DNA of 64,000 bases from Candidatus Zambryskiibacteriota bacterium (GCA_023267045.1 JAHFOB010000001.1:9593-73592); one strand, 5' to 3'; positions 2,842 through 59,663 are shown, counted from the first letter of the stretch. A program made the numbers and translations. The notes: a model not told the origin generated them from the letters alone.

Positions 2842-2940
2842 TCCCGTTAGAGTTTTACTAAATTTGATTAGAGTAATAATTATATTAGAAAATCAGTGTA
2901 TAATAATTGGTATTAGAAAATAATGAAAAACTCTAACGGG
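2842..2940 (+). mobile_element. 99-bp miniature element bounded by inverted repeats TCCCGTTAGAGTTTTAC / GAAAAACTCTAACGGG, flanked by a 5-bp direct repeat ATGAA (copy 1)
   Basis: Read directly: the left arm (2842-2858) and right arm (2925-2940) are reverse complements. ATGAA lies at 2837-2841 and again at 2941-2945. The spacer holds an extended -10 box TGTATAAT (2897-2904) oriented toward the downstream gene. The original ATGA stop/start junction of the two flanking GT genes appears to have been split by the insertion. Confidence 0.6.
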
Positions 2941-4056
2941 ATGAAAGTACTTTCTATAAGCACAGACAGAAAATTGTTTGAAGAAGGAAGCGCTGTTTTA
3001 GAGCGTTCAAAAGATTATGCTTCCAAAATGGAGAAATTGCACATAATAGTTTTTTCCTTAAAAAGTCATAATTTAAAATTTAAAGAAGAAGGGAATTTGT
3101 ACATTTATCCAACAAATTCTTTGTCGAGATGGTTTTATGTGATGGATGCAGTGAAAATAGGAAAAAGTATTTTAAATAAAAGTTTTGTTATTTCCACCCA
3201 AGATCCATTTGAGACTGGTTTAGTCGGCTATAAACTTAAGAAAAAGTTTAATCTGCCACTCCAAATCCAAATACACACTGATTTCCTAAGTCCATATTTC
3301 AGAAATTCTTTCTTGAATTATATTCGTGTTTTTATTTCAAAATTTACTATTCCAAAAGCAGATTATGTTCGTGTTGTCAGTTCTTCAGTAGAAGATTCTC
3401 TAAGAAAAATCTCAACAAAAGTGAAAATTCAGATTTTGCCAGTTTTTGTTGATATTCCAAGAATAATGAATTTTCAACCAAAAAAAGATATAAAAAAAGA
3501 TTTTCCTCAATTTAAATTTAGTATTTTTATGGCTTCCCGGTTGACCAAAGAAAAGAGAATAGACACTGCACTCAAGGCTTTTAGAAAAGTAGTCGATGTC
3601 CACACAGAAGCTGGTTTGATTATTTCTGGATCAGGAAAAGAGGAAGGTAATCTAAAAAGTTTGGTAAAATCTCTAGGGCTTACAAAAAATGTTATTTTCA
3701 CTGGTTGGAATGATGGTTTGATTTCATATTATAAAACAGCAGATATTTTTCTACTTACTTCACAGTACGAGGGTTATGGTATGACTCTTGTGGAGGCTGG
3801 AGCATCGGGCTGTCCTATTGTTACGACAAAAGTTGGTCTGGCAAAAACAGATCTTTTTAAAAACGGAGCAAACTCTTTTGTCTGTTCAGTTTGGGATGTA
3901 AATTGTTTATCAGAATCTATTTTAAAACTTATTTCTAATCCCAATTTAAGACTATTGTTCAAAACAAAAATGCAGGATAGTATTAGAAATACAACTATTT
4001 CAAAAGAAGAATATGTGACAAAGTATGTCAGTTTGCTTCAGGATTTATTAAAATAA
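2941..4056 (+). CDS. Glycosyltransferase family 4
   Basis: Carries the E-x7-E motif EGYGMTLVEAGASGCPIVTT. The track start at 2923 adds MKNSNG, which is encoded by the element's right repeat; 2941 is the ATG contiguous with the gene body. Confidence 0.7.
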   Translation: MKVLSISTDRKLFEEGSAVLERSKDYASKMEKLHIIVFSLKSHNLKFKEEGNLYIYPTNSLSRWFYVMDAVKIGKSILNKSFVISTQDPFETGLVGYKLKKKFNLPLQIQIHTDFLSPYFRNSFLNYIRVFISKFTIPKADYVRVVSSSVEDSLRKISTKVKIQILPVFVDIPRIMNFQPKKDIKKDFPQFKFSIFMASRLTKEKRIDTALKAFRKVVDVHTEAGLIISGSGKEEGNLKSLVKSLGLTKNVIFTGWNDGLISYYKTADIFLLTSQYEGYGMTLVEAGASGCPIVTTKVGLAKTDLFKNGANSFVCSVWDVNCLSESILKLISNPNLRLLFKTKMQDSIRNTTISKEEYVTKYVSLLQDLLK

Positions 4057-20344: not shown

Positions 20345-22105
20345 ATGGATAGAATAAAACAACTCATACGGCAACATTGGATAGCTCTATTACTCGCATT
20401 TATCATTGGTGTTTTGGTTGTGAGTCCGACTCTTGTATCTATTAGAAAACTTACCCCAAATACATTTAAGGGTATTTACCCAATGTTCAATGATGATGAG
20501 GATGTGTATTTGACGATGACTCGCGAAGCGTACGACGGACATACCAATCTATCCAATGCATATATAAAGGATTATAAGGCTGGACCATATTTACAACCAC
20601 CGCTTCCAGAGGTAGTTTATTCGGGCATAGCAAAAGTTCTACATGTTTCTGTTGCCACAGAGGCAGTTGTCAATGACTTTTTTACACCGCTTATCTCATT
20701 TCTCATTCTGTATTCTTTAATATGGATGCAAACCAAGTCAAAAAAGATTTCCCTTGCTCTTTCAAGTTTATTTTTTCTATTTTTTCTTGGATCTTTTGGA
20801 AGACCAATAAACCCACAGTTTGGTTTTATCTTTCTTTTGCTAGGATTTCAATGTATTTGGATCATTGCTACTAATACTTTCCCTAAAAAGAAAATAATTC
20901 TTTGGAATCTTGCTCTCGCCGGATGCTTTGGAGTCTTGGTCTACGCCTATCCTTTTTATTGGATGACTCTTGGAGTGGTTTATACAGTCTGGACACTTTC
21001 CATTGCTCTGAAAGAAAAAGAGTGGAGATATTGGCTTACCAACTGGCTATGGTTTTTTATTCCGGCAGGAATATGTACACTACCATTTCTCTATAACGCA
21101 AAACTTCTTGCATCAAGTCCATTTTTTATAGAAGCAAACGAACGGTTTGGATTTCTTGCTACGCATTTTCCCGGTTCTTATTTCCAGATAATTTTAATAA
21201 TACTCTGTTTTCCACTAGCTTTTGCTGTTTGGAAATTGAACCAAAAATATCTTAGTAATATTGTACTTTTCGCTCCAGCACTTATACTTTCTGGAATTAT
21301 TCTTAATTGGCAAAATATTATAACTGGCAAAACTTTGCAGTTTCCTCCGCATTTTTATCCAGTTATGGTCTTGTTTATTTTTCTCATAGCTAGTGTAACT
21401 ATACATACAGTGTGTAGAGAAGGTGTGCGTAGATTATGGAGCATTATCTGTGTAACAACTTTAGTTTTGTTGTGTATCATCATTGGCAACAGACAAAAAG
21501 GAGAAGCTATAGCGGTGATCAGAAATATATATAAACCGGTGGATATAACTAAACTACAAGATATTGGTAGAGTGACACAGTGGCTTAGTCAAAATACTCC
21601 ACCAGATTCAGCGGTCTATGCACTCGGAGAGAACTATTTCTGGGCAATACCAATATATACCAGCGATAATCTGTATTTTGCTCCAAATGCAAGTCTAACA
21701 ATGATGTCGGATTTAGAACTTGAAAACAGATGGGCAATTCAGCATTTCTTTGACGATGAGACAGAAAGTAGGGTGACACAAGCTAGTCGTGAAATATGGG
21801 CCAATAAATTCATTGATTCATATCAAAACAAAGAAGTGCGCAGAAAGATTTTAGAACTTATTACAAGAAAACAATATCCAGAAAATATTCTTATGGATGA
21901 AAGTTATCCAAAAAGAGTATTCCAAATCTACAAAAAAAATAAAGAAATGGGTTTTGAAAAAGCTCTGAAAACTTATTCTGTTGATTATATTCTTTTGGAC
22001 AATAGCGACAAAAGATACACTTCTTTGGAAGAAAAGTTTAATTCTTTTTCTTTTATAAAAGAAGTAGCGCGTTTTGGGGACACGATAATATATAAAATAA
22101 AATAA
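20345..22105 (+). CDS. Large polytopic membrane protein, possibly GT-C-like
   Basis: 586 aa with many TM helices and the acidic loop PMFNDDEDVY. No firm family assignment. Confidence 0.35.
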   Translation: MDRIKQLIRQHWIALLLAFIIGVLVVSPTLVSIRKLTPNTFKGIYPMFNDDEDVYLTMTREAYDGHTNLSNAYIKDYKAGPYLQPPLPEVVYSGIAKVLHVSVATEAVVNDFFTPLISFLILYSLIWMQTKSKKISLALSSLFFLFFLGSFGRPINPQFGFIFLLLGFQCIWIIATNTFPKKKIILWNLALAGCFGVLVYAYPFYWMTLGVVYTVWTLSIALKEKEWRYWLTNWLWFFIPAGICTLPFLYNAKLLASSPFFIEANERFGFLATHFPGSYFQIILIILCFPLAFAVWKLNQKYLSNIVLFAPALILSGIILNWQNIITGKTLQFPPHFYPVMVLFIFLIASVTIHTVCREGVRRLWSIICVTTLVLLCIIIGNRQKGEAIAVIRNIYKPVDITKLQDIGRVTQWLSQNTPPDSAVYALGENYFWAIPIYTSDNLYFAPNASLTMMSDLELENRWAIQHFFDDETESRVTQASREIWANKFIDSYQNKEVRRKILELITRKQYPENILMDESYPKRVFQIYKKNKEMGFEKALKTYSVDYILLDNSDKRYTSLEEKFNSFSFIKEVARFGDTIIYKIK

Positions 22106-22704
22106 TAAAAAAGTGCCCAGCTACTAGCGAATAGCTGGGCACTCAGGAAATACGCTCCAAATGTTGCGATCGTGATCACAACACTTGCGATTAAAACCAC
22201 CTTCTCAAATGGTTTGAGATGGAAAAGTTCTCCAGCGCTATATCTGTAGTCCTCTATGCCCATGACCTCACCGAGCTTGAGCTTTGTGAAGTACGGGTAG
22301 ATTGGCCAGATGCAACTGTTATCCGTCGAGTTCCAGATCGGATCACAGTGCGTCAGGCAGTCTATGAATGTGTGCAGGATCATCCCGAGCGAAAGGGCGA
22401 CAAAGAAGGTTCCGATCGGCTCCGATTGATACTGAAGACCGATGAGTAGTAGTAGCTCTATAACAAACGAATGACTGGTCTCCTTTGTCAGAAGAAAGAA
22501 CGGCTGGTTTTCTCCTCCTGAAAAGACTGGACGTTTGTAATAAAACTTATCCAACGCCCACTGTCCAAATGTTGGAATATCTGGCGTGACGTTGCCCATG
22601 ACAGTTCCAGCAAGGGCGCATTGTCCCAAGACTGGGTCATGTGAGGCCAGTAAAACTGCTCCGCCGATCGCTGTTCCCATAACCAAGTGCGTGTATGTTT
22701 GCAA
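21985..22704 (-). CDS. Membrane-bound metal-dependent hydrolase-like protein (DUF457/YdjM-like). GC-rich and SD-bearing, so likely horizontally acquired.
   Basis: MQTYTHLVMGTAIGG N-terminus and His-rich TM segments. TTG start preceded by AAAGGAGG. The 22140-22700 segment is about 50% GC against a ~33% background. The 3' end of the ORF, as drawn by the track, runs through the terminator hairpin and overlaps the upstream gene, so the true C-terminus is uncertain. Confidence 0.45.
   Translation of the reverse strand: MQTYTHLVMGTAIGGAVLLASHDPVLGQCALAGTVMGNVTPDIPTFGQWALDKFYYKRPVFSGGENQPFFLLTKETSHSFVIELLLLIGLQYQSEPIGTFFVALSLGMILHTFIDCLTHCDPIWNSTDNSCIWPIYPYFTKLKLGEVMGIEDYRYSAGELFHLKPFEKVVLIASVVITIATFGAYFLSAQLFASSWALFYYFILYIIVSPKRATSFIKEKELNFSSKEVYLLSLLSKRI
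22112..22143. terminator. Bidirectional rho-independent terminator hairpin between convergent genes
   Basis: GTGCCCAGCTA-ctagcgaa-TAGCTGGGCAC, a perfect 11-bp stem, with an A-run upstream and a T-run on the opposite strand. Confidence 0.5.
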
Positions 22705-22809
22705 GGCGTCCTCCTTTGTACATTATACTACCTTATACTAAATTTGTCAACAAAAAAAATAGGAAATATTCTCGTATTTAAGGTAAACTAAAGTTAATAA
22801 CTTAACAAC

Positions 22810-42273: not shown

Positions 42274-42299
42274 AAAAATCCGCCATCGTGCGGATTTTT
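42274..42299. terminator. Rho-independent terminator hairpin AAAAATCCGC-catcgt-GCGGATTTTT, potentially bidirectional
   Basis: Perfect 10-bp stem with T/A runs on both sides. Confidence 0.5.
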
Positions 42300-42325
42300 G
42301 TTTCCCAGTAGTAGAGTTTTGGTGT

Positions 42326-42457
42326 TGCACAGATTACCGTGCGTATGAAATGACACCAAACTCACTACCGGGTTTGCCCCGTAGTGAAGTTGGCATTATG
42401 TGTATCACGCAGGGTAATCCCTGCCATGACAACTTCTACTACCGGGGTTTTTGTGTT
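42326..42457 (+). promoter_or_regulatory. Structured secA 5' leader: hairpin GTTTTGGTGT...ACACCAAAC, then a long terminator/attenuator-like hairpin CCCCGTAGTGAAG...CTTCTACTACCGGGG followed by a T-tract
   Basis: Inverted repeats read directly. TTTTTGTGTT immediately follows the second stem, and the secA ATG at 42474 follows. Confidence 0.35.
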
Positions 42458-42473
42458 AAAATATCCTCTATCT

Positions 42474-52808: not shown

Positions 52809-53432
52809 ATGGGTAAAGCATTATTATTAAAATCAGAGATTGATAAAATAAAAAAGCTAAGAGAAACAGGGCATTCTCTGAATGAGATAAAAAGCGTTGT
52901 TAATCGAGGATATGGAACAGTGTATCGTTATATGAAAAATGTTCCTGTCATCTCAAAGTACCAAGATATTTTAAAATCTAAACAAGGTGGTAGTAGTGCG
53001 AGATCTCAAAAAAATTGGAACAATGCTAGAAAAAATGCCAGTAAAATTATAAATGATCTTAATTTCAAAGAAAAGATGGTAGCACTTTCTTGTCTTTATT
53101 GGGGTGAGGGTAATAAGACAGAATTAAGTTTAATTAATAGTGATCCTAGTTTGCTTAAAGTTTTTCTGTCATGTTTAAGAGAGTTGGGTATTAAAGAAAG
53201 TGATTTGAAAATAAGTTTGAGATTATTTGAAGATATAGATAGAAATAAAGCAACAGATTTTTGGTTGAAAATTCTACATCTACCAAACGGGAGTATTACA
53301 AAATATGACATAAAAAAAGGAAGTAAATCGGGAAAACTTAAATACGGTATGTGTAGAATAAGAGTGAAAAAATCTGACAAATATTTCAAATTGATTATGA
53401 GTATGATAGATTTAATTAAATTAAAGGTTTAA
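52809..53432 (+). CDS. HTH-containing DNA-binding protein with a single LAGLIDADG-like motif (putative free-standing homing-endonuclease-like)
   Basis: N-terminal HTH-like IKKLRETGHSLNEIKSVV. ALSCLYWGEGNKT resembles a degenerate LAGLIDADG helix, followed by a basic beta-rich region. Confidence 0.3.
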   Translation: MGKALLLKSEIDKIKKLRETGHSLNEIKSVVNRGYGTVYRYMKNVPVISKYQDILKSKQGGSSARSQKNWNNARKNASKIINDLNFKEKMVALSCLYWGEGNKTELSLINSDPSLLKVFLSCLRELGIKESDLKISLRLFEDIDRNKATDFWLKILHLPNGSITKYDIKKGSKSGKLKYGMCRIRVKKSDKYFKLIMSMIDLIKLKV

Positions 53433-53435
53433 AAT

Positions 53436-53507
53436 GCCGTCGTAGTTAAATGGATATAACTCCTTCGTCCTAAGAAGGAATTGACCGTTCGATTCGGTCC
53501 GATGGCA
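53436..53507 (+). tRNA. tRNA-Arg (anticodon CCT)
   Basis: Manual fold: acceptor GCCGTCG/CGATGGC, D-stem GTTA/TAAC, anticodon stem CCTTC/GAAGG with loop GTCCTAA, T-stem GACCG/CGGTC with loop TTCGATT, discriminator A. CCA is not encoded. Confidence 0.75.
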
Positions 53508-53537
53508 CAAAAAAAAGAGAGCTCCACTCTCTTTTAA

Positions 53538-53752
53538 AGGGGTGCTCCCTGTCTGGTCCCTACAAGTTCTCTGTTTTGAGATACTTTGTCCTCACCACGC
53601 TCTGGATGATAACCTAGGATTAACTCATCACCCAAGGTGGAAGCCTTTGCGAGTTACGCGCCTCGTTGGCGGTCTTGGATTTTCTCTCGTCAAGAGACTT
53701 ATGAGGGATCTGATCGCGCGATCAAGATTAACCTTAAAGGAGCACCCCGTTT
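53538..53752 (+). ncRNA. Candidate ~215-nt structured RNA closed by a terminal helix GGGGUGCUCC / GGAGCACCCC. Identity unknown; it could be a 6S-like or other regulatory RNA.
   Basis: GC about 48% against a ~33% background. The 10-bp terminal helix and internal imperfect complementary strands were read directly (UCCCUACAAGUUCUCU vs AGAGACUUAUGAGGGA). The track ORFs across it are low-complexity and lack start context. Confidence 0.3.
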
Positions 53753-53819
53753 CATTCTAAGGGTCTCTAATTTTTTGTCAACTTATTTACTTTTCTTCAT
53801 ATTTTGCTACTATAATCTC

Positions 53820-54056
53820 ATGTCACCAGAGGAAAGAGAGCTCCTTAAAAGAACAGCTGATCTTGCAGAAGATAACAATAAAATGTTGCGCTCGATGCAA
53901 CGTTCTATGCGTTTACAAAGGATAATGACTCTATTTTATTGGGTTTTTATAATAGGCTCGGCCATAGGAGCGTATTATCTTATTCAGCCATATATAGATA
54001 GTATTAAAGGGGCATATGGAGGTGCTAGTAGCGGTTTCAAGGATCTTTTTAACTAA
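53820..54056 (+). CDS. Small membrane protein (78 aa) with an N-terminal coiled/charged segment and one TM helix
   Basis: MSPEERELLKRTADLAEDNNKMLRSMQRSMRLQRIMTLFYWVFIIGSAIGAYYLI. The ATG is preceded by TATAAT. The upstream part of track ORF 53637 overlaps the GC-rich structured region and is probably not translated. Confidence 0.35.
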   Translation: MSPEERELLKRTADLAEDNNKMLRSMQRSMRLQRIMTLFYWVFIIGSAIGAYYLIQPYIDSIKGAYGGASSGFKDLFN

Positions 54057-54478
54057 AATTTAAGAGTTCGCCCTTTATAATTCAAAGCTTCTTTAACAAA
54101 TTTTTCCCCAAGTTTTGTGCTATGTTCTATCATGTGACAGTTTGCACAAAGTAAAAGACATTTTTGCATCTCGGCTTTAATTGAATCCCAACTTTTATTT
54201 GCAACACCCCCGATAATGAATTCTTTCTTTGAAGAGTCTTTGTGGTGAAATTGCATTGCTGCTTGATTCCCATGCCATCCACATTTCTCACACTTTCCTC
54301 CCAATAATTTAATAGCTGCGGCTTTAGACCGAAATCTTCGAATTTTTGTATTACATGAACCACAACGATTTCTTTGTCTATTTTGGTAATCTTTAAATGG
54401 TTTATTACACAATTTGCATATTGTCATATTGGTCAGTATAACATATATGGCTCTACCAAAATCAAGAATGGGTTGCAA
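54053..54478 (-). CDS. HNH endonuclease
   Basis: Cys4 zinc site plus the HNH core: CEKCGWHGNQAAMQFHHKD...N...LLCANCHMIEH. Confidence 0.7.
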   Translation of the reverse strand: MQPILDFGRAIYVILTNMTICKLCNKPFKDYQNRQRNRCGSCNTKIRRFRSKAAAIKLLGGKCEKCGWHGNQAAMQFHHKDSSKKEFIIGGVANKSWDSIKAEMQKCLLLCANCHMIEHSTKLGEKFVKEALNYKGRTLKF

Positions 54479-54503: not shown

Positions 54504-54579
54504 CATACCACATGCCGAGGTAACTCAGTTAGCAGAGTGCTTCCCTGAAGAGGAAGAAGTCGCCAGTGCAACTCTGGCC
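54504..54579 (+). tRNA. tRNA-Phe (anticodon GAA)
   Basis: Manual fold: acceptor GCCGAGG/CCTCGGC, D-stem ACTC/GAGT, anticodon stem CTTCC/GGAAG with loop CTGAAGA, T-stem GCCAG/CTGGC, discriminator A, and an encoded CCA. Confidence 0.8.
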
Positions 54580-56132
54580 CTCGGCACCATAATCCGACTT
54601 TCGTCGGAAGAACCAACGGATGCGTGGGACGCGCGAAGTGCGTCCCACGGAGTTCCGCCTGAATCTGCGAGGGAATCTGTCAAAAATGAATCTGAATTTG
54701 GAGTGCAAGCACTCACGGTTTTTTCGCGGAGGAGGAGGTTCGAGCCAAAGACTTTTTTGGCAGCAACCTTTTTATTCAAAAGGTTGCTATCCAATGCAAT
54801 TTTTTCCATATTCTGGGCTTCTTTTATCCATTCTGACATCGGTTCGAGCCAATGTTTTTGCTTTTGTTCATTCCGAGATATTTCTTCTTCCAGCGACTTT
54901 TTCTCGGATAACAATTTTGCTTTTTGTTCACGATATACTTCTTTTTCTACATCTTGGTCTAAATATCCATCTAAAAGTCGCTGGAGCTTCACAGTAATAT
55001 CTTTTATACGATTTTGATTTTTTAGAACAAAAGCAGAAACAGATTGGGCGGATTCCGTTTTGTCGTTTTCTAAACGACCGAACATATATTCCGCCCAATC
55101 TTGTGGCAAAGAAACTTTTTGAAGAAGTGATGAAATTTGTTCGTCCAAGACTTCCTGGCGAATACAGGGTTCAGGACACTTAATATCTCGTCGCTTTTTG
55201 GAACAGTGATAGTAAGTGTAATAATGTTCTTTACCACTGACTTGTTTCTTCACCCTGTATTCGCCAGTGATCATCATTCCGCAAGTTCCACAGGATAACA
55301 AACCACAATATGCTTGGGGTTCATTTTTCTGTTTGTGTCTTGGACGACCTCTTTGCTTCATCACTTCTTGGACTCTATCAAAAAGTTTCTTGTCCACGAT
55401 TGGCTCAAACTTTCCTTCATAGACTTCACCAGAATATCTAAAGTGTCCATAGTAAAAAGGATTAGACAGAATAAAAGTAGCTCTGGTTCTATGGATTCTC
55501 TTTCCGTGTTTTGTTAAAAGATTGTGCTTCGCCAAAAACATACCGATAGTATTAAGAGTTTGATTACCTTGTGAATACAGTTCGAACGCTTGTCTTATAA
55601 CAGGCGCGGATTTTTTGTCCACCACGATTGTCTTTGTTCTACTATCGTTTATATATCCCACTGGTGAAAGTCCTGGATATTCTCCGCGCCTAACTTTTTG
55701 GCGAAGTCCTCTTTTGGTATTTTCGGAAAGAGAATCCACATAGTATTTACTTTGTCCGAAAGCCATGTTGAGCATGAATTTACCTTGACTCGTAGAATCA
55801 CACCAAAAAGTAGGAAACTTCAAGCTCGCAAGTTTCCCTGTGTCGAGGAGGTATATTATTTTTCCACCATCAATACTATTTCTTGCGAGACGATCCGGAT
55901 GCCAAGAGAGGATAGAATCTGCATCGCCATTTTCGATACATCTCATCATTTCGTTGAAAATAGGACGACCTGGAATCTTGGCAGATTGTTTTTCTATAAA
56001 CTCAAGGGCGATGTTCAGATTTTCTCGCTTGGCATAGTCTCGCAATTCGTTGAGCTGTGCCTCAATCGAAAGAACTTGTTTGTCCTCGACATCTGTTGAC
56101 TTGCGAGCGTATAAAAAGAATTTTTGTTCCAT
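54525..56132 (-). CDS. Large serine recombinase (resolvase/integrase family)
   Basis: N-terminal catalytic domain FFLYARKSTDVEDKQVLSIEAQ (Ser nucleophile context) ... WHPDRLARN, a recombinase domain, and Cys-rich zinc-ribbon CGTCGMMITGEYRVKK...CSKKRRDIKC. M at 56132 is the likely start. The 3' end of the ORF runs through IR-A and antisense through tRNA-Phe with no stop until 54525, so the true C-terminus is uncertain. Confidence 0.75.
   Translation of the reverse strand: MEQKFFLYARKSTDVEDKQVLSIEAQLNELRDYAKRENLNIALEFIEKQSAKIPGRPIFNEMMRCIENGDADSILSWHPDRLARNSIDGGKIIYLLDTGKLASLKFPTFWCDSTSQGKFMLNMAFGQSKYYVDSLSENTKRGLRQKVRRGEYPGLSPVGYINDSRTKTIVVDKKSAPVIRQAFELYSQGNQTLNTIGMFLAKHNLLTKHGKRIHRTRATFILSNPFYYGHFRYSGEVYEGKFEPIVDKKLFDRVQEVMKQRGRPRHKQKNEPQAYCGLLSCGTCGMMITGEYRVKKQVSGKEHYYTYYHCSKKRRDIKCPEPCIRQEVLDEQISSLLQKVSLPQDWAEYMFGRLENDKTESAQSVSAFVLKNQNRIKDITVKLQRLLDGYLDQDVEKEVYREQKAKLLSEKKSLEEEISRNEQKQKHWLEPMSEWIKEAQNMEKIALDSNLLNKKVAAKKVFGSNLLLREKTVSACTPNSDSFLTDSLADSGGTPWDALRASHASVGSSDESRIMVPRARVALATSSSSGKHSAN
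54622..54756. repeat. Inverted repeat IR-A (~135 bp, left copy) flanking the serine recombinase gene
   Basis: About 85% identical to the reverse complement of 56185-56317. It contains the hairpins CGTGGGACGC-gcgaagt-GCGTCCCACG and GAGTGC-aa-GCACTC, and ends in a T-arm-like GGAGGAGGTTCGAGCC. Confidence 0.7.
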
Positions 56133-56184
56133 ATGTTTGTAGTATAGCAAAAATTCTTTTTGTAAAGAAAAGTAAAAATTGTAT

Positions 56185-56317
56185 TGGATTCGAACCTCCT
56201 CCTCCAAAACAAATTAGTGCGCGCTTGCGCGCCAGATTCAGATTCATTTTTGGCGGATTCCATCGCAGATTCAGGCGGGAACCCTTGGGATGCACTTCGT
56301 GCGTCCCACATTATGGC
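56185..56317. repeat. Inverted repeat IR-A' (right copy, about 50 bp upstream of the recombinase start)
   Basis: Reverse complement of 54622-54756. The hairpins are conserved with compensatory changes (GCGCGC-aa-GCGCGC against GAGTGC-aa-GCACTC). Confidence 0.7.
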
Positions 56318-56334
56318 TTCTTCAAAACCGATTT

Positions 56335-56575
56335 GTTCTATTTTGGTGTGTCTTTACGACTTCGCTCGAACTTATTTCATTAAAACTGTTTAAGTGGTGA
56401 ATCTGACAATGAATTCCGTCACGGCTCGGCATCCGCTCCAGAACACGCTGGAAAGCGTGTTCTTCCGCTTCTGCCTTACCGTGTCCGCCCTCGCACCCAT
56501 CGCTTCCAATCCTAAATCTGTTTTGCGCGGGATTTCTTTTTTCGGAATGGGCGATTGGTTCTCGGGCTACTTGCC
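56335..56575. repeat. Inverted repeat IR-B (~240 bp, left copy), GC-rich, with internal hairpin GAACACGCT-ggaa-AGCGTGTTC and a terminal hairpin plus T-tract
   Basis: Near-identical to the reverse complement of 59355-59598. The identical 61-aa track ORFs (56394-56579 + and 59347-59547 -) are a consequence of this repeat. Confidence 0.75.
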
Positions 56576-56611
56576 GTGACAAAAAATTAACCAAAATGTT
56601 ATACTTAAAAC

Positions 56612-58228
56612 ATGGATGAACAAACTCCTACTATTATTCCTCCCCCGATACCCCAGGAAGAACCTCAAAAAACTAAACAGCCATTATGGTTAGCGGTCTC
56701 AATTCTGGCTGCAGTTTTTGTAGTTGTCGGTAGTTATTTTATATATCAAAAACTAACGACAAAATCACAGATTCAGAATGTAAATTTTGTAAATATTGCT
56801 ACGACCACAGATCAATTTGCAAATTGGAAAACATATACCGATGAACAGTATAAATTTGAGTTTAAATATCCAGCTACACTTGAAGTTTTTAAAGATAATA
56901 CGGCGATTATTCACATTATTCATCCCGAAGATAAGGACGTAGATTTAAGTAAAACTGGGCCAGTAGATGGCATGTGGATACATGTTGTGGATAATACAGA
57001 TAAATTATCCGTCACTGATTGGTGGAATAAATACGGACCTTATACTCCAAAAAGAAATGGTACTGGACTTAAACCCGACACTTTTCCAATTAAGAATATG
57101 AGCGTGGGTAATTTAAACGGTATTTACATTGGTGGTTCAGAGGGTGTTTTATCGAATTACCTCATTTTGCCATATATGGATAAAATCCTTGAAATTAATG
57201 TAATGACTAAAGATTTCAAGGAAATTCTCTCTACTTTAAAATTACCAGAATCATTAACAAAAGATTGGCAAACCTACAGAAACGATGAGTTTAAAATTTT
57301 TGAAATAAAATATCCTGGAGGATGGGTAATTCAACAGGAAGATCCTTACCAGCTTATTTTATCAAGTGCTCCAAAAGAACAATATTTGAAAGATGTTGGT
57401 GTCGCTCCTTCTGGAAATATGTCAATAACCGTGTCAGAGGGTGTAAATTGCTCTAGTGATGATTTCAAAAGCCTTCTCGGTTTTACGAAGTCAAACATTT
57501 CAGTTAAAAGAGTTTGTGTTGATGGATTTCAGATCTCAGCAGTTATTTGGAATGATGATACGCAAATAATTTCTCATAAAGAACTACTGAATGAAATTAT
57601 TTCCACATTTAAATTTATTGAGAAAAAACGACTTAGTAAAGAAGAACTAGCAAACAGAATATTACTAACTTCAGAAAATATTCCTACTTACGCAAAATAT
57701 AATGAACCATATAAAAGCGGGAGTTTACCCTCAGCATGTACTGAAAAATTTAATTATGACGAGCCAAATAGTACAACTACTTATTCTAATACAAAATGGG
57801 GCATATCGTTTGGAGTTCCATATAATGTAAATTGGGGAAATAGTAAGTACAGAATAGATCCGTATGAAGAAATTGAGGTAAATAATAAATATAACAACGA
57901 TGTCTTATCTGCTATTTCATGGGGTTATATTAGTGGTGGTGAGGGATGTTCATGGGGAAGACAATATTTTGTTGATATTAAATCAAAAAAATCAGCGGAG
58001 GATCTTATGACATCAATGAAACCGGATAATCTTCCTTACGATATATTTCATGCTAAAATCGAGACAATAAATAACTTACAGGTTGTAAAATATAGTACTG
58101 CCGATATGTGTGCATATTACTATATAGTAGTTATTGGTAAAAAATATAATTATGAATTCACATCTTCATGTAATGGAAGTTTTGATGACGTTGAACCGGT
58201 AGTTAAAACAGTAAAACTACTTGATTAA
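56612..58228 (+). CDS. Secreted or membrane-anchored protein of unknown function (N-terminal TM/signal anchor, Pro-rich linker, ~480-aa extracytoplasmic domain)
   Basis: KQPLWLAVSILAAVFVVVGSYFIY anchor. No recognisable catalytic motif. Enclosed between the IR-B copies. Confidence 0.4.
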   Translation: MDEQTPTIIPPPIPQEEPQKTKQPLWLAVSILAAVFVVVGSYFIYQKLTTKSQIQNVNFVNIATTTDQFANWKTYTDEQYKFEFKYPATLEVFKDNTAIIHIIHPEDKDVDLSKTGPVDGMWIHVVDNTDKLSVTDWWNKYGPYTPKRNGTGLKPDTFPIKNMSVGNLNGIYIGGSEGVLSNYLILPYMDKILEINVMTKDFKEILSTLKLPESLTKDWQTYRNDEFKIFEIKYPGGWVIQQEDPYQLILSSAPKEQYLKDVGVAPSGNMSITVSEGVNCSSDDFKSLLGFTKSNISVKRVCVDGFQISAVIWNDDTQIISHKELLNEIISTFKFIEKKRLSKEELANRILLTSENIPTYAKYNEPYKSGSLPSACTEKFNYDEPNSTTTYSNTKWGISFGVPYNVNWGNSKYRIDPYEEIEVNNKYNNDVLSAISWGYISGGEGCSWGRQYFVDIKSKKSAEDLMTSMKPDNLPYDIFHAKIETINNLQVVKYSTADMCAYYYIVVIGKKYNYEFTSSCNGSFDDVEPVVKTVKLLD

Positions 58229-58272
58229 TAATTTGTTGCTTAAAAATTGGTATTTGATATAATGTCAGTAAT

Positions 58273-58755
58273 ATGGCTCGCGATGTACTAAATGCACAAC
58301 AAATAGCCGAATACTTCCTCTGGAAAGCGCAAAACGAGAAAAAGGCAATTACGAATAAGAAACTGCAGAAATTACTTTACTATGCTCAAGCATGGTCTTT
58401 GGTTTTGCGTGACAAAAAACTTTTCAGTGACAAAATTGAGGCGTGGGTACATGGGCCTGCTGTTCGTGATGTATATTTTGAATACAAAAAATTTGGCTTT
58501 GGGCCAATCACAAAAACTGTAAAGGAAAATGACTTAGAAAAAATTTCTATAGATACAAAAAAATTCCTCGATCAAGTTTGGTCTGTATATGGTAAAAAAG
58601 ATGCAGCTTATTTGGAATATCTTTCTCACTCTGAAACTCCTTGGCAAAAAGCCCGCGAAGGACTTGAACCACATATTGGGTCTGAAAATGAAATTTCTCC
58701 TAAAGACATGAAGGAATTTTACAGTTCTAAACTCACAACACAGAAACATACTTAA
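58273..58755 (+). CDS. Panacea-domain (DUF4065/SocA-like) protein, a putative antitoxin-type component
   Basis: ARDVLNAQQIAEYFLWKAQ...ITNKKLQKLLYYAQAWSLVL...AWVHGPAVRDVY matches the DUF4065/Panacea core. Three nucleotides separate it from the next ORF. Confidence 0.45.
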   Translation: MARDVLNAQQIAEYFLWKAQNEKKAITNKKLQKLLYYAQAWSLVLRDKKLFSDKIEAWVHGPAVRDVYFEYKKFGFGPITKTVKENDLEKISIDTKKFLDQVWSVYGKKDAAYLEYLSHSETPWQKAREGLEPHIGSENEISPKDMKEFYSSKLTTQKHT

Positions 58756-58758
58756 ACT

Positions 58759-59187
58759 ATGACAATACCATCACCGGACGAGAAACTTCCAGAAAGTCCA
58801 ATACCATTGACCGCTGTTGAAATTCCACAACCTGAAGAACCGCCAGAAGCGAAACCTTTTCTGATATCTTTCGAAAAGTATAACGATAAGGAGTGCCAGC
58901 TAGACGGAATGGAGAGCAAAATGGCTAAAAAAGCTTTTAAAACTATTCGTGATATTGGTGTAAATATAAGAGACGAAAGCGATTTTGGTAAATATTTACC
59001 AAAATTAGAAGTTGTCCCTATAGAAAATAGTGGAGATTACAGAAAATTATACAAAGGACTAACAGATATGCCAGATGTTGAAGTGAAAGAAGCAAAAATT
59101 GATCGTCATACAGGTCGATTATTCTTTTTCTTGGTAGGTAAAATTTTTCATATTATCGCGGTAAGAGAAAGTCATTACCAAACATAA
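58759..59187 (+). CDS. Hypothetical protein with a RelE/ParE/Gp49-like C-terminal region; putative toxin partner
   Basis: C-terminal KIDRHTGRLFFFLVGKIFHIIAVRESHY resembles the RelE/ParE-superfamily C-terminal strand-helix. The Pro-rich N-terminal extension is unusual. Tightly coupled to the upstream Panacea gene. Confidence 0.25.
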   Translation: MTIPSPDEKLPESPIPLTAVEIPQPEEPPEAKPFLISFEKYNDKECQLDGMESKMAKKAFKTIRDIGVNIRDESDFGKYLPKLEVVPIENSGDYRKLYKGLTDMPDVEVKEAKIDRHTGRLFFFLVGKIFHIIAVRESHYQT

Positions 59188-59354
59188 AAAGCACAGCAGT
59201 TTACTTGTAGCCTCGGACATATTCCGTTTTGGGCGTCGTCACATAACTACAAAATGATACATTACCACTAGCGCAAAGGAATGTCTGAGGCGAATGATTA
59301 TGTTAGAGTAAAGATATAGGTAGGTAGTACAGTAGTTTGAATTCCGTCAGTTTC

Positions 59355-59598
59355 TCCCTTTAAGGAGAAACCCGCCCGAGAACCAATCGCCCATTCCGAA
59401 AAAAGAAATCCCGCGCAAAACAGATTTAGGATTGGAAGCGATGGGTGCGAGGGCGGACACGGTAAGGCAGAAGCGGAAGAACACGCTTTCCAGCGTGTTC
59501 TGGAGCGGATGCCGAGCCGTGACGGAATTCATTGTCAGATTCACCACTTAAACAGTTTTAATGAAATAAGTTCGAGCGAAGTCGTAAAGACACACCAT
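59355..59598. repeat. Inverted repeat IR-B' (right copy)
   Basis: Reverse complement of 56335-56575. The match breaks at TTCTCGGGC on both sides. Confidence 0.75.
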
Positions 59599-59663
59599 AA
59601 TCAAAAACCATCCTGAGTTTATCGAAGGATGGTTTTTTGATTGCGGTGCCAAATATGGAAGTT

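Follow-up and report, generated by a model that had tools for sequence, protein, structure and literature searches.

A candidate orphan gene for a structured RNA, read from the minus strand, at a tRNA-flanking insertion hotspot of a Paceibacteria genome

Between the genes for tRNA-Arg(CCT) and a 78-aa membrane protein, the 64,000-nucleotide stretch of DNA analysed here (referred to as the window) contains a GC-rich segment that we regard, with moderate confidence, as an orphan and horizontally acquired gene for a structured small RNA, one that is self-contained and would be read from the minus strand. The predicted transcript is ~240 nt long. The features by which a stand-alone sRNA gene was assessed are a promoter of its own (in this case a match to the consensus), an intrinsic terminator and a lack of coding capacity, and each was found for this segment. 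A GC-rich fragment of foreign origin can, however, fold well without having any function.

The host is a member of the Paceibacteria (Parcubacteria, CPR). For the neighbouring 78-aa protein 214 homologues were found, and the named sources among them are Zambryskibacteria, Nomurabacteria, Paceibacterota or Minisyncoccia. The gap from tRNA-Arg to the 78-aa gene (53820-54056) measures 311 nt in the window and is occupied, in order, by a hairpin (53509-53537) that has an A-run before it and a T-run after it on the plus strand, by the GC-rich segment, and by a spacer of ~70 nt (~53750-53819) that is AT-rich by eye. The original prediction had placed the structured segment immediately downstream of tRNA-Arg, but the two are not directly adjacent, as the hairpin, of 10 bp and with its A and T runs, intervenes between them. 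The features of the locus, in order of position, are as follows.

52809-53432, plus strand: gene for a 207-aa protein with a weak Hin-type HTH match at its N-terminus and no Pfam match
53436-53508, plus strand: tRNA-Arg(CCT), detected by ARAGORN; a neighbour only, outside the RNA, and of the same tRNA type as in locus L026
~53509-53768, no strand assigned: lineage-specific insertion (terminator, RNA and -10 box), from the comparison of gaps with relatives
53509-53535, minus strand: putative intrinsic terminator, AAAAGAGAGU-GGA-GCUCUCUUUU and then U residues; 10 pairs, probability 0.94
53539-53748, minus strand: structured core of 210 nt, 50% GC, closed by helix P1, from MFE and z-scores
53562-53589, minus strand: hairpin D, loop AAAACA; probabilities 0.46-0.75, uncertain
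53595-53640, minus strand: hairpin C, 10-bp helix UGGGUGAUGA/UUAUCAUCCA, probability 0.97; apical helix 0.93
53641-53700, minus strand: hairpin B, where the fold is least certain; helix probabilities 0.61-0.88
53708-53728, minus strand: hairpin A, AUCU-U-GAUC GCGC GAUC-AGAU; inner helix probability 1.00, outer 0.68
53737-53748, minus strand: 5' strand of P1, GGGGUGCUCCUU, paired in the predicted fold with AGGGAGCACCCC at 53539-53550
53754-53781, minus strand: candidate sigma-70-type promoter, TTGACA-16-TAGAAT, with 11/12 consensus matches
53805-54056, plus strand: extended -10 TGCTACTAT and leaderless gene for the 78-aa membrane protein, a geometry conserved in relatives
54053-54478, minus strand: gene for a 141-aa HNH endonuclease (PHROG HNH families, E 1e-25)
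54514-54589, plus strand: tRNA-Phe(GAA), detected by ARAGORN

The segment is enclosed by GGGGTGCTCC (53539-53548) and GGAGCACCCC (53739-53748), which together form a perfect 10-bp inverted repeat, as had been recognised in the original prediction. Among the 73 perfect 10-bp inverted repeats with a loop of 150-300 nt in the window, this is the sole pair with at least seven G/C, the others of that geometry being mostly AT-rich, and block shuffles give a mean expectation of 0.1 GC-rich repeats of the same kind. The GC content is 0.50 for 53538-53750 and 0.44-0.485 over the segment when computed in 200-nt windows, as compared with 0.354 for the window as a whole, values that come close enough to the 48% versus 33% first estimated. 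The segment is non-coding. Two plus-strand ORFs do exist across it (53542-53760 and 53637-54056), and the doubts that had been expressed about them were well founded: gene callers call nothing in the segment on two independent contigs, the 72-aa plus-strand product has no homologue among 5.8 billion proteins, and a HMMER search of 1.84 billion representatives with this product returned only three repeat proteins, which match through internal repeats and are regarded as noise. The minus strand is free of ATG-initiated ORFs, and the longest reading frame there, of 33 aa, begins with TTG. A 135-aa variant of the neighbouring protein (P0069) was also considered and set aside, being a product of reading through tRNA-Arg and not through a related element.

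Both strands of the element can be folded, with unequal success. When read from the minus strand, the whole element has a minimum free energy of -82.2 kcal/mol (z -5.52, with 0/200 shuffles as good), as against -73.3 kcal/mol (z -2.62) for the plus strand. With the closing helix left out, the interior continues to fold better than chance on the minus strand (z -2.95, 0/200 shuffles as good) but not on the plus strand (z -0.81, 39/200 shuffles as good), and the partially complementary internal strands that had been reported are in this sense a property of the minus strand and not of the plus strand. A coarse window-wide scan of z-scores places the minus-strand element among the top 3-5 of 594 segments of 215 nt, and ~6-7 G-U pairs, as counted from the MFE structure, are specific to that strand. 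Since the significance of the fold, the promoter and the terminator agree, we assign the RNA to the minus strand; all three speak against the plus-strand reading implied by the original prediction, and the strand assumed there is most likely wrong.

The candidate promoter consists of a -35 TTGACA at 53781-53776, a 16-nt spacer and a -10 TAGAAT at 53759-53754, and it is one of three sites with at least 11/12 matches on both strands of the 64-kb window. The first G of P1 follows the end of the -10 box by 5-6 nt, and transcription should begin at ~53748-53746, with that first G of the closing helix. At the other end of the element, the putative terminator starts 3 nt past the 3' strand of P1 and ends one base from the 3' end of tRNA-Arg. 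It would place nine consecutive U in the minus-strand transcript, whereas only UUUU follows the hairpin on the plus strand; it is one of three distinct strong terminators on both strands of the window, and the terminator part of the Rfam family STnc290 aligns to it (53509-53535, minus strand). Promoter and terminator bracket the element in the correct order and on the correct strand, each within a few nucleotides of the ends of P1. Both signals are consensus matches only, and the promoter could be an accident of the insertion junction because TTGTCAA/TTGACAA is nearly palindromic and the -35 overlaps a spacer that is possibly ancestral. The combination of A-run, hairpin and T-run could also act as a bidirectional terminator that serves tRNA-Arg.

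Elsewhere in the window, the only perfect 12/12 promoter (22750-22722) drives a minus-strand ORF of 239 aa (21985-22750) that is GC-rich (0.53) and gave negative results with NCBIfam and PHROGs. Within the 3' end of this ORF as called is the strongest terminator of the window (22143-22112), and the product looks like a membrane protein by eye, with its true stop, and even its coding status, uncertain. A second orphan GC-rich structured segment occurs on the plus strand at 42296-42462, where a pair of long hairpins similar to each other (MFE -65.3 kcal/mol, z -5.75, 0/200 shuffles) and without a match in Rfam separates a Lys-rich mini-ORF and its terminator from the probable start of secA (ATG 42476, by eye).

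Another suggestion of the original prediction, that the segment might be a cis-leader of the protein encoded at 53820, is contradicted by the unremarkable fold of the plus-strand interior (z -0.81) and by the promoter of that gene, a conserved extended -10 (TGCTACTAT, 53805-53813) located downstream of the element. Among relatives whose gap is minimal (n~18), a TTGATT-like -35 is combined with an extended -10 (TGnTAnnAT) that stands 6-7 nt before the ATG, and because this distance is only 6-7 nt the mRNA of the 78-aa gene would be leaderless. In the window the element is situated more than 50 nt upstream of the promoter of the gene, and a 5' leader or riboswitch of the 78-aa gene was rejected for the reason that the element lies outside the leaderless mRNA and upstream of the gene's promoter. 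A broader version of this reading would have a plus-strand element, reached by read-through from the tRNA, serve tRNA-Arg as a 3' trailer or the 78-aa gene as a cis-regulatory leader. The location between both genes and on their coding strand agrees with such a role, and the presence of only four U after the hairpin on the plus strand makes read-through conceivable; however, the interior fold of that strand is matched by 39/200 shuffles, the extended -10 of leaderless type is conserved downstream of the element, and ~18 relatives carry the same gene with a gap of 22-56 nt and no such element. We consider a plus-strand element very improbable, and it would be a mistake to annotate the element as ORFs of the plus strand or as a leader belonging to the gene downstream. 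With regard to other genes of the window, most ORFs are without a Shine-Dalgarno sequence, and a TATAAT-like box is found 6-10 nt before many start codons (e.g., 10292, 48917, 52809, 53820 and 58273). This arrangement suggests that leaderless mRNAs might be widespread in the organism.

For the minus-strand RNA gene that we prefer, the sigma-70 promoter (53781-53754) would start transcription at the first G of GGGGUGCUCC (~53748), the transcript would form a multi-branched domain of 210 nt, made up of the 12-bp helix that closes it, a short second helix and a junction surrounded by four hairpins, and transcription would end at the intrinsic terminator (53535-53509) that abuts the oppositely oriented tRNA-Arg. 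The MFE, centroid and MEA structures are all multi-branched, with the 12-bp closing helix and four hairpins in each. On the minus strand, P1 gains a G-U and a U-A pair in addition to the perfect 10, which brings it to 12 pairs with a mean pairing probability of 0.98, and the second helix of the predicted RNA has 4 bp. Hairpin A includes the DNA palindrome GATCGCGCGATC, and hairpin B combines a 12-nt unpaired stretch, AGAAAAUCCAAG (53685-53674), with a small CGCC/GGCG hairpin; by inspection, the CUUGGGU of hairpin C is a possible alternative partner for the sequence AUCCAAG. A second copy of the motif AAUCCnAG (AAUCCUAG) is found in the apical loop of hairpin C. The predicted hairpin loops are GCGC, AACGA, AUCC and AAAACA, and several of the interior helices have a pairing probability of only 0.46-0.7.

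Such an RNA would presumably be transcribed and act in trans as a structured RNA. It may serve as a scaffold for the binding of protein, or it may act through exposed single-stranded AAUCCnAG motifs, one of which is placed by the predicted fold in the 12-nt internal loop and the other in the apical loop of hairpin C. Duplex folding of the RNA against start regions yielded long looped duplexes only, and an anti-Shine-Dalgarno action is unlikely because the genes of the window are mostly without Shine-Dalgarno sequences and many of them are leaderless.

No known RNA family accounts for the element. Rfam 15 comprises 4227 models, with membership defined by a score at or above the gathering threshold of the family, and searches of both strands in the gathering and E-value modes, with the window, an identical contig (L001) and a 256-nt segment as queries, assigned the element to no family. 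When the 256-nt segment was searched at E<=10 with the laxest filters, only terminator-like partial matches (STnc290, DnaX and the 3' end of CrcZ) and the structureless FTX_1 were returned, the partial match to STnc290 scoring 21.7 bits against a threshold of 60. These negative results are tempered by the failure of the Rfam speed filters to detect two genuine tRNAs at this locus. The tRNA-Arg(CCT), a variant with the D-arm GTTAAATGGATATAAC (53436-53508; 2389-2461 in L026), was missed by Rfam in all modes, and the tRNA-Phe at 54514-54589, which has the unusual T-loop GUGCAAC, was dropped in the gathering mode in spite of a score of 62 bits.

A housekeeping RNA (6S, SRP, RNase P or tmRNA) might in principle have diverged so far as to be missed by the models, as real tRNAs of this genome are missed by the Rfam filters. 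The paired 5' and 3' ends and the possession of a promoter and a terminator are traits of the ssrS, ffs and rnpB genes as well, and GAGAGAAAAUCC and ACAGAGAA of the element faintly resemble the conserved regions CR-I and CR-V of E. coli RNase P RNA. The P4 pseudoknot of RNase P RNA joins CR-I (GAGGAAAGUCC...) to CR-V (ACAGAA...CUUA), with helices that follow the order P1-P2-P3-P4...P2'-P4'-P1'. By inspection of the element, the pairing of CUUGUAGG with AAAUCCAAG is limited to 4 bp, CUUGGGU as the other potential partner is topologically misplaced, and the look-alikes cannot form P4 in the right topology; no RNase P model matches, and an RNase P RNA measures 330-400 nt, as compared with 210 nt for the element. 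SRP RNA is recognised by the hairpin of its domain IV, which has a GNAR tetraloop and conserved symmetric and asymmetric loops; in the element there is no GNRA-capped domain IV with an AGCA motif (the sole AGCA being inside P1) and no model match. A tmRNA combines a tRNA-like domain (acceptor stem, T-arm, CCA end) with a tag reading frame; ARAGORN finds no tmRNA in the window, and neither a T-arm nor a CCA is present at the 3' end of the element. These results, together with the Rfam scans, bear out the earlier impression that the core motifs of RNase P, SRP and tmRNA are missing. The description "6S-like" is not supported, as the MFE, centroid and MEA folds are multi-branched around a junction rather than rods with a long closing stem, a large central bubble and a terminal stem-loop, and no 6S covariance model matched at E<=10. 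None of these housekeeping families appeared in the search of the 256-nt segment at E<=10 with the laxest filters, and such an RNA would not be expected to vanish from the locus in all relatives, without leaving a recognisable homologue in 446 kb of sequence. Of the readings considered, we hold this one to be the least probable. A group I intron, which would interrupt a host gene on the strand of that gene and have a conserved P3-P7 core, was rejected separately: the element is intergenic with a promoter of its own, and it has no match to RF00028, a model that does detect an intron in locus L078. That intron (2849-3120, minus strand; RF00028, 79 bits) belongs to a Paceibacter genome and directly follows the homologue of the 78-aa gene, at the position that tRNA-Phe has in other genomes; ARAGORN finds no tRNA-Phe in the L078 locus.

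Searches for homologues were equally unproductive. Both nhmmer, as applied to the syntenic loci, and a covariance model made from the sequence and the predicted structure, as applied to 446 kb of related loci, recovered only the window's own sequence (262.6 bits in the latter case). Pattern scans of viral contigs gave 0 matches for the closing-helix pair with a variable gap and, for an 18-mer of the unpaired junction, three chance matches with no extended similarity. Two purine/pyrimidine-coded patterns that tolerate transitions had 0 matches in JGI metagenome contigs, a result with the sensitivity of patterns only. BLAST in its distant mode against phages and plasmids found nothing relevant, and nothing specific was found in the literature on CPR non-coding RNAs. 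The neighbouring protein occurs on three contigs from three samples, and the two contigs that were compared are 100% identical to the window over 2.8-5.3 kb, so that there is no population variation to use. Within the databases searched, the element has no detectable homologue and belongs to no known family, and consequently it offers neither covariation nor a sign of purifying selection. Of the description "lineage-specific regulatory RNA" that had been proposed, a lineage-specific RNA is the best available wording, with the qualification that it belongs to no known family.

The history of the locus can be approached through 76 genome loci that were fetched around aligned homologues of the 78-aa protein, together with the locus of the closest available relative (L079), which has 78% identity in the 78-aa protein. 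A succession of glutaredoxin, tRNA-Arg(CCT), 78-aa gene and tRNA-Phe(GAA) is widely conserved. In the 18 relatives where tRNA-Arg and the 78-aa gene lie closest together, 22-56 nt separate them, versus 311 nt in the window. In L079, glutaredoxin, tRNA-Arg and the 78-aa gene are in direct succession (with a gap of 131 nt, counting the 73-nt tRNA), and this locus has neither the element nor the 207-aa gene found ahead of tRNA-Arg in the window. Neither nhmmer nor the single-sequence covariance model found the element in the 76 syntenic loci or in L079, and the window from ~53769 onward resembles an ancestral AATTTTGATTTT... spacer. Because the syntenic relatives and L079 are without the element and have far shorter gaps, we interpret the ~260-nt block as a lineage-specific insertion. 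A lack of conservation in relatives had been named in the original prediction as part of what would speak against it, and indeed none of them carries the element; this means that the element is without detectable relatives, and it does not make the element a 5' UTR. The block would most likely have been acquired horizontally, since it is missing from the relatives and since the site is a recurrent insertion hotspot of this bacterial class.

The hotspot is hypervariable, with gaps of 170-1600 nt and unrelated content in many relatives. GC-rich insertions of ~115-190 nt that repeat parts of the tRNA-Arg of their own genome were found in six of them (L013, L020, L023, L032, L063 and L069). Five of the six contain the final 12-21 nt of tRNA-Arg as a direct copy, the exception being L013, which has only an inverted copy, and an inverted copy of the T-loop is present in all but L032 (again five of the six); L069 additionally repeats ~75 nt of the downstream flank, and L013 and L020 are related to each other. 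These insertions have the look of integration scars, or of miniature integrative elements, placed at the tRNA 3' end. An origin of the window's element as a scar of this type was rejected, as there is no repeat of the tRNA 3' end at its distal boundary, and no match of at least 9 nt exists between tRNA-Arg and the 311-nt gap in the window. Also, the scar-type insertions of the relatives fold better on the plus strand, and the window's element does so on the minus strand. In ~18 loci the tRNA-Arg is inverted.

Two protein genes come and go at neighbouring positions. The HNH gene occurs sporadically between the 78-aa gene and tRNA-Phe, with 70-79% identity across genomes, which exceeds the conservation of its neighbours, and the 207-aa gene occurs sporadically between glutaredoxin and tRNA-Arg; the loci with such sporadic genes include L007, L020, L032, L038, L043, L052, L063, L064, L070, L079 and others, in addition to the window. 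From this distribution, both genes appear to behave like free-standing genes of the homing-endonuclease type. A tie between the element and either of these genes was rejected, as both occur at the same positions in relatives without the element. Further downstream, an island of ~5 kb (54590-59601) separates the CCA end of tRNA-Phe from the terminator by which tRNA-Phe is directly followed in relatives. The island contains the gene for a large serine recombinase (54525-56207, minus strand; the ORF as called overlaps tRNA-Phe), which is flanked by a 135-nt inverted repeat of 80% identity (54624-54758 / 56175-56309), and it contains a 228-nt inverted repeat of 100% identity (56340-56567 / 59374-59601) around three ORFs, one of which is SocA-antitoxin-like (58273-58755). 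The island could be an invertible or mobile cassette.

The main rival to a functional RNA gene is that the block represents an inert remnant of foreign or mobile DNA, for example decayed cargo beside tRNA-Arg, with transcription signals that are fortuitous or left over. Much about the neighbourhood agrees with such an origin, including the demonstrable hotspot with its unrelated insertions of 170-1600 nt in many relatives, the scar-type copies of tRNA-Arg in the six relatives named above, the sporadic mobile genes (HNH endonuclease and 207-aa HTH) that flank the site, the recombinase island after tRNA-Phe, and the failure to find either a homologue or a sign of selection. The block differs, however, from the scars of the relatives in having no duplicated tRNA 3' end and in folding better on the minus rather than the plus strand. 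It is also unlikely that one of only three such promoters and one of only three such terminators would by chance bracket a top-folding segment, and neutral DNA in a genome of 35% GC should drift towards AT-richness. We regard an inert remnant as a real possibility, though one on the unlikely side.

The inverted repeat suggests a different kind of mobile DNA, a MITE-like non-autonomous element with GGGGTGCTCC and GGAGCACCCC as its terminal inverted repeats. The perfect 10-bp repeats around ~190 bp and the presence or absence of the block between related genomes would be in keeping with this possibility, but there is one copy in 64 kb and none in 446 kb of related loci, the ends of the repeats show no target-site duplication (TTTTAAA | ... 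| GTTTCAT), and patterns based on the repeats or on the core are unmatched in viral and metagenome contigs. A DNA element, moreover, has no need for the strand-specific structure of the interior. A MITE-like element is in our estimation improbable.

To our knowledge, almost nothing is known of regulatory or structural RNAs in the Patescibacteria (CPR) beyond the universal ones, and a well-defined RNA gene of ~240 nt, with a strong fold and transcription signals that are clean, would be a concrete candidate in this group. Its apparent recent insertion at a tRNA-flanking hotspot suggests that sRNA genes might be exchangeable as cassettes in reduced genomes, with the reservation that a candidate from a single genome has limited general significance. 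More speculatively, and in our view with rather little probability, the element might be the first representative of a novel class of structured RNAs, in which a minimal promoter-RNA-terminator cassette inserts beside the tRNA genes of Patescibacteria and constitutes a horizontally exchangeable RNA function. If this were true, such a cassette could provide reduced genomes with an RNA that sequesters a protein, for example, or with one that is linked to a mobile element.

Several known systems resemble the predicted RNA gene in part. It is similar to the tRNA integration scars of its relatives in site (directly after tRNA-Arg), in size (170-300 nt), in GC-richness and in being preceded by a terminator hairpin, and unlike them in the lack of a direct copy of the tRNA-Arg 3' end or an inverted T-loop, and in its minus-strand fold. 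It shares with bacterial MITEs (Correia, RUP, ERIC) a small size, a terminal inverted repeat and a pattern of presence or absence between relatives; it departs from them as a single-copy element with no target-site duplication, a repeat of only 10-12 bp, a strand-specific interior, and a promoter and terminator of its own. Like 6S RNA (RF00013 and relatives), it appears as an independent gene of ~200 nt, GC-rich as compared with its genome, with ends that pair in a closing stem, but 6S RNA is a rod with a central bubble, whereas the element is predicted to have a multi-branch junction with four hairpins and occupies a locus that is not conserved. Finally, the GC-IGR approach has led to the discovery of stand-alone sRNA genes as GC-rich intergenic islands in AT-rich genomes (PMC8632094). 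The acceptance of such candidates normally requires covariation among their homologues, in contrast to the present element, which is without homologues and appears as a recent insertion at a non-conserved locus; it is like the GC-IGR sRNAs in being GC-rich, non-coding and well-folding, with a sigma-70-type promoter and an intrinsic terminator of its own, and with a predicted length of ~240 nt.
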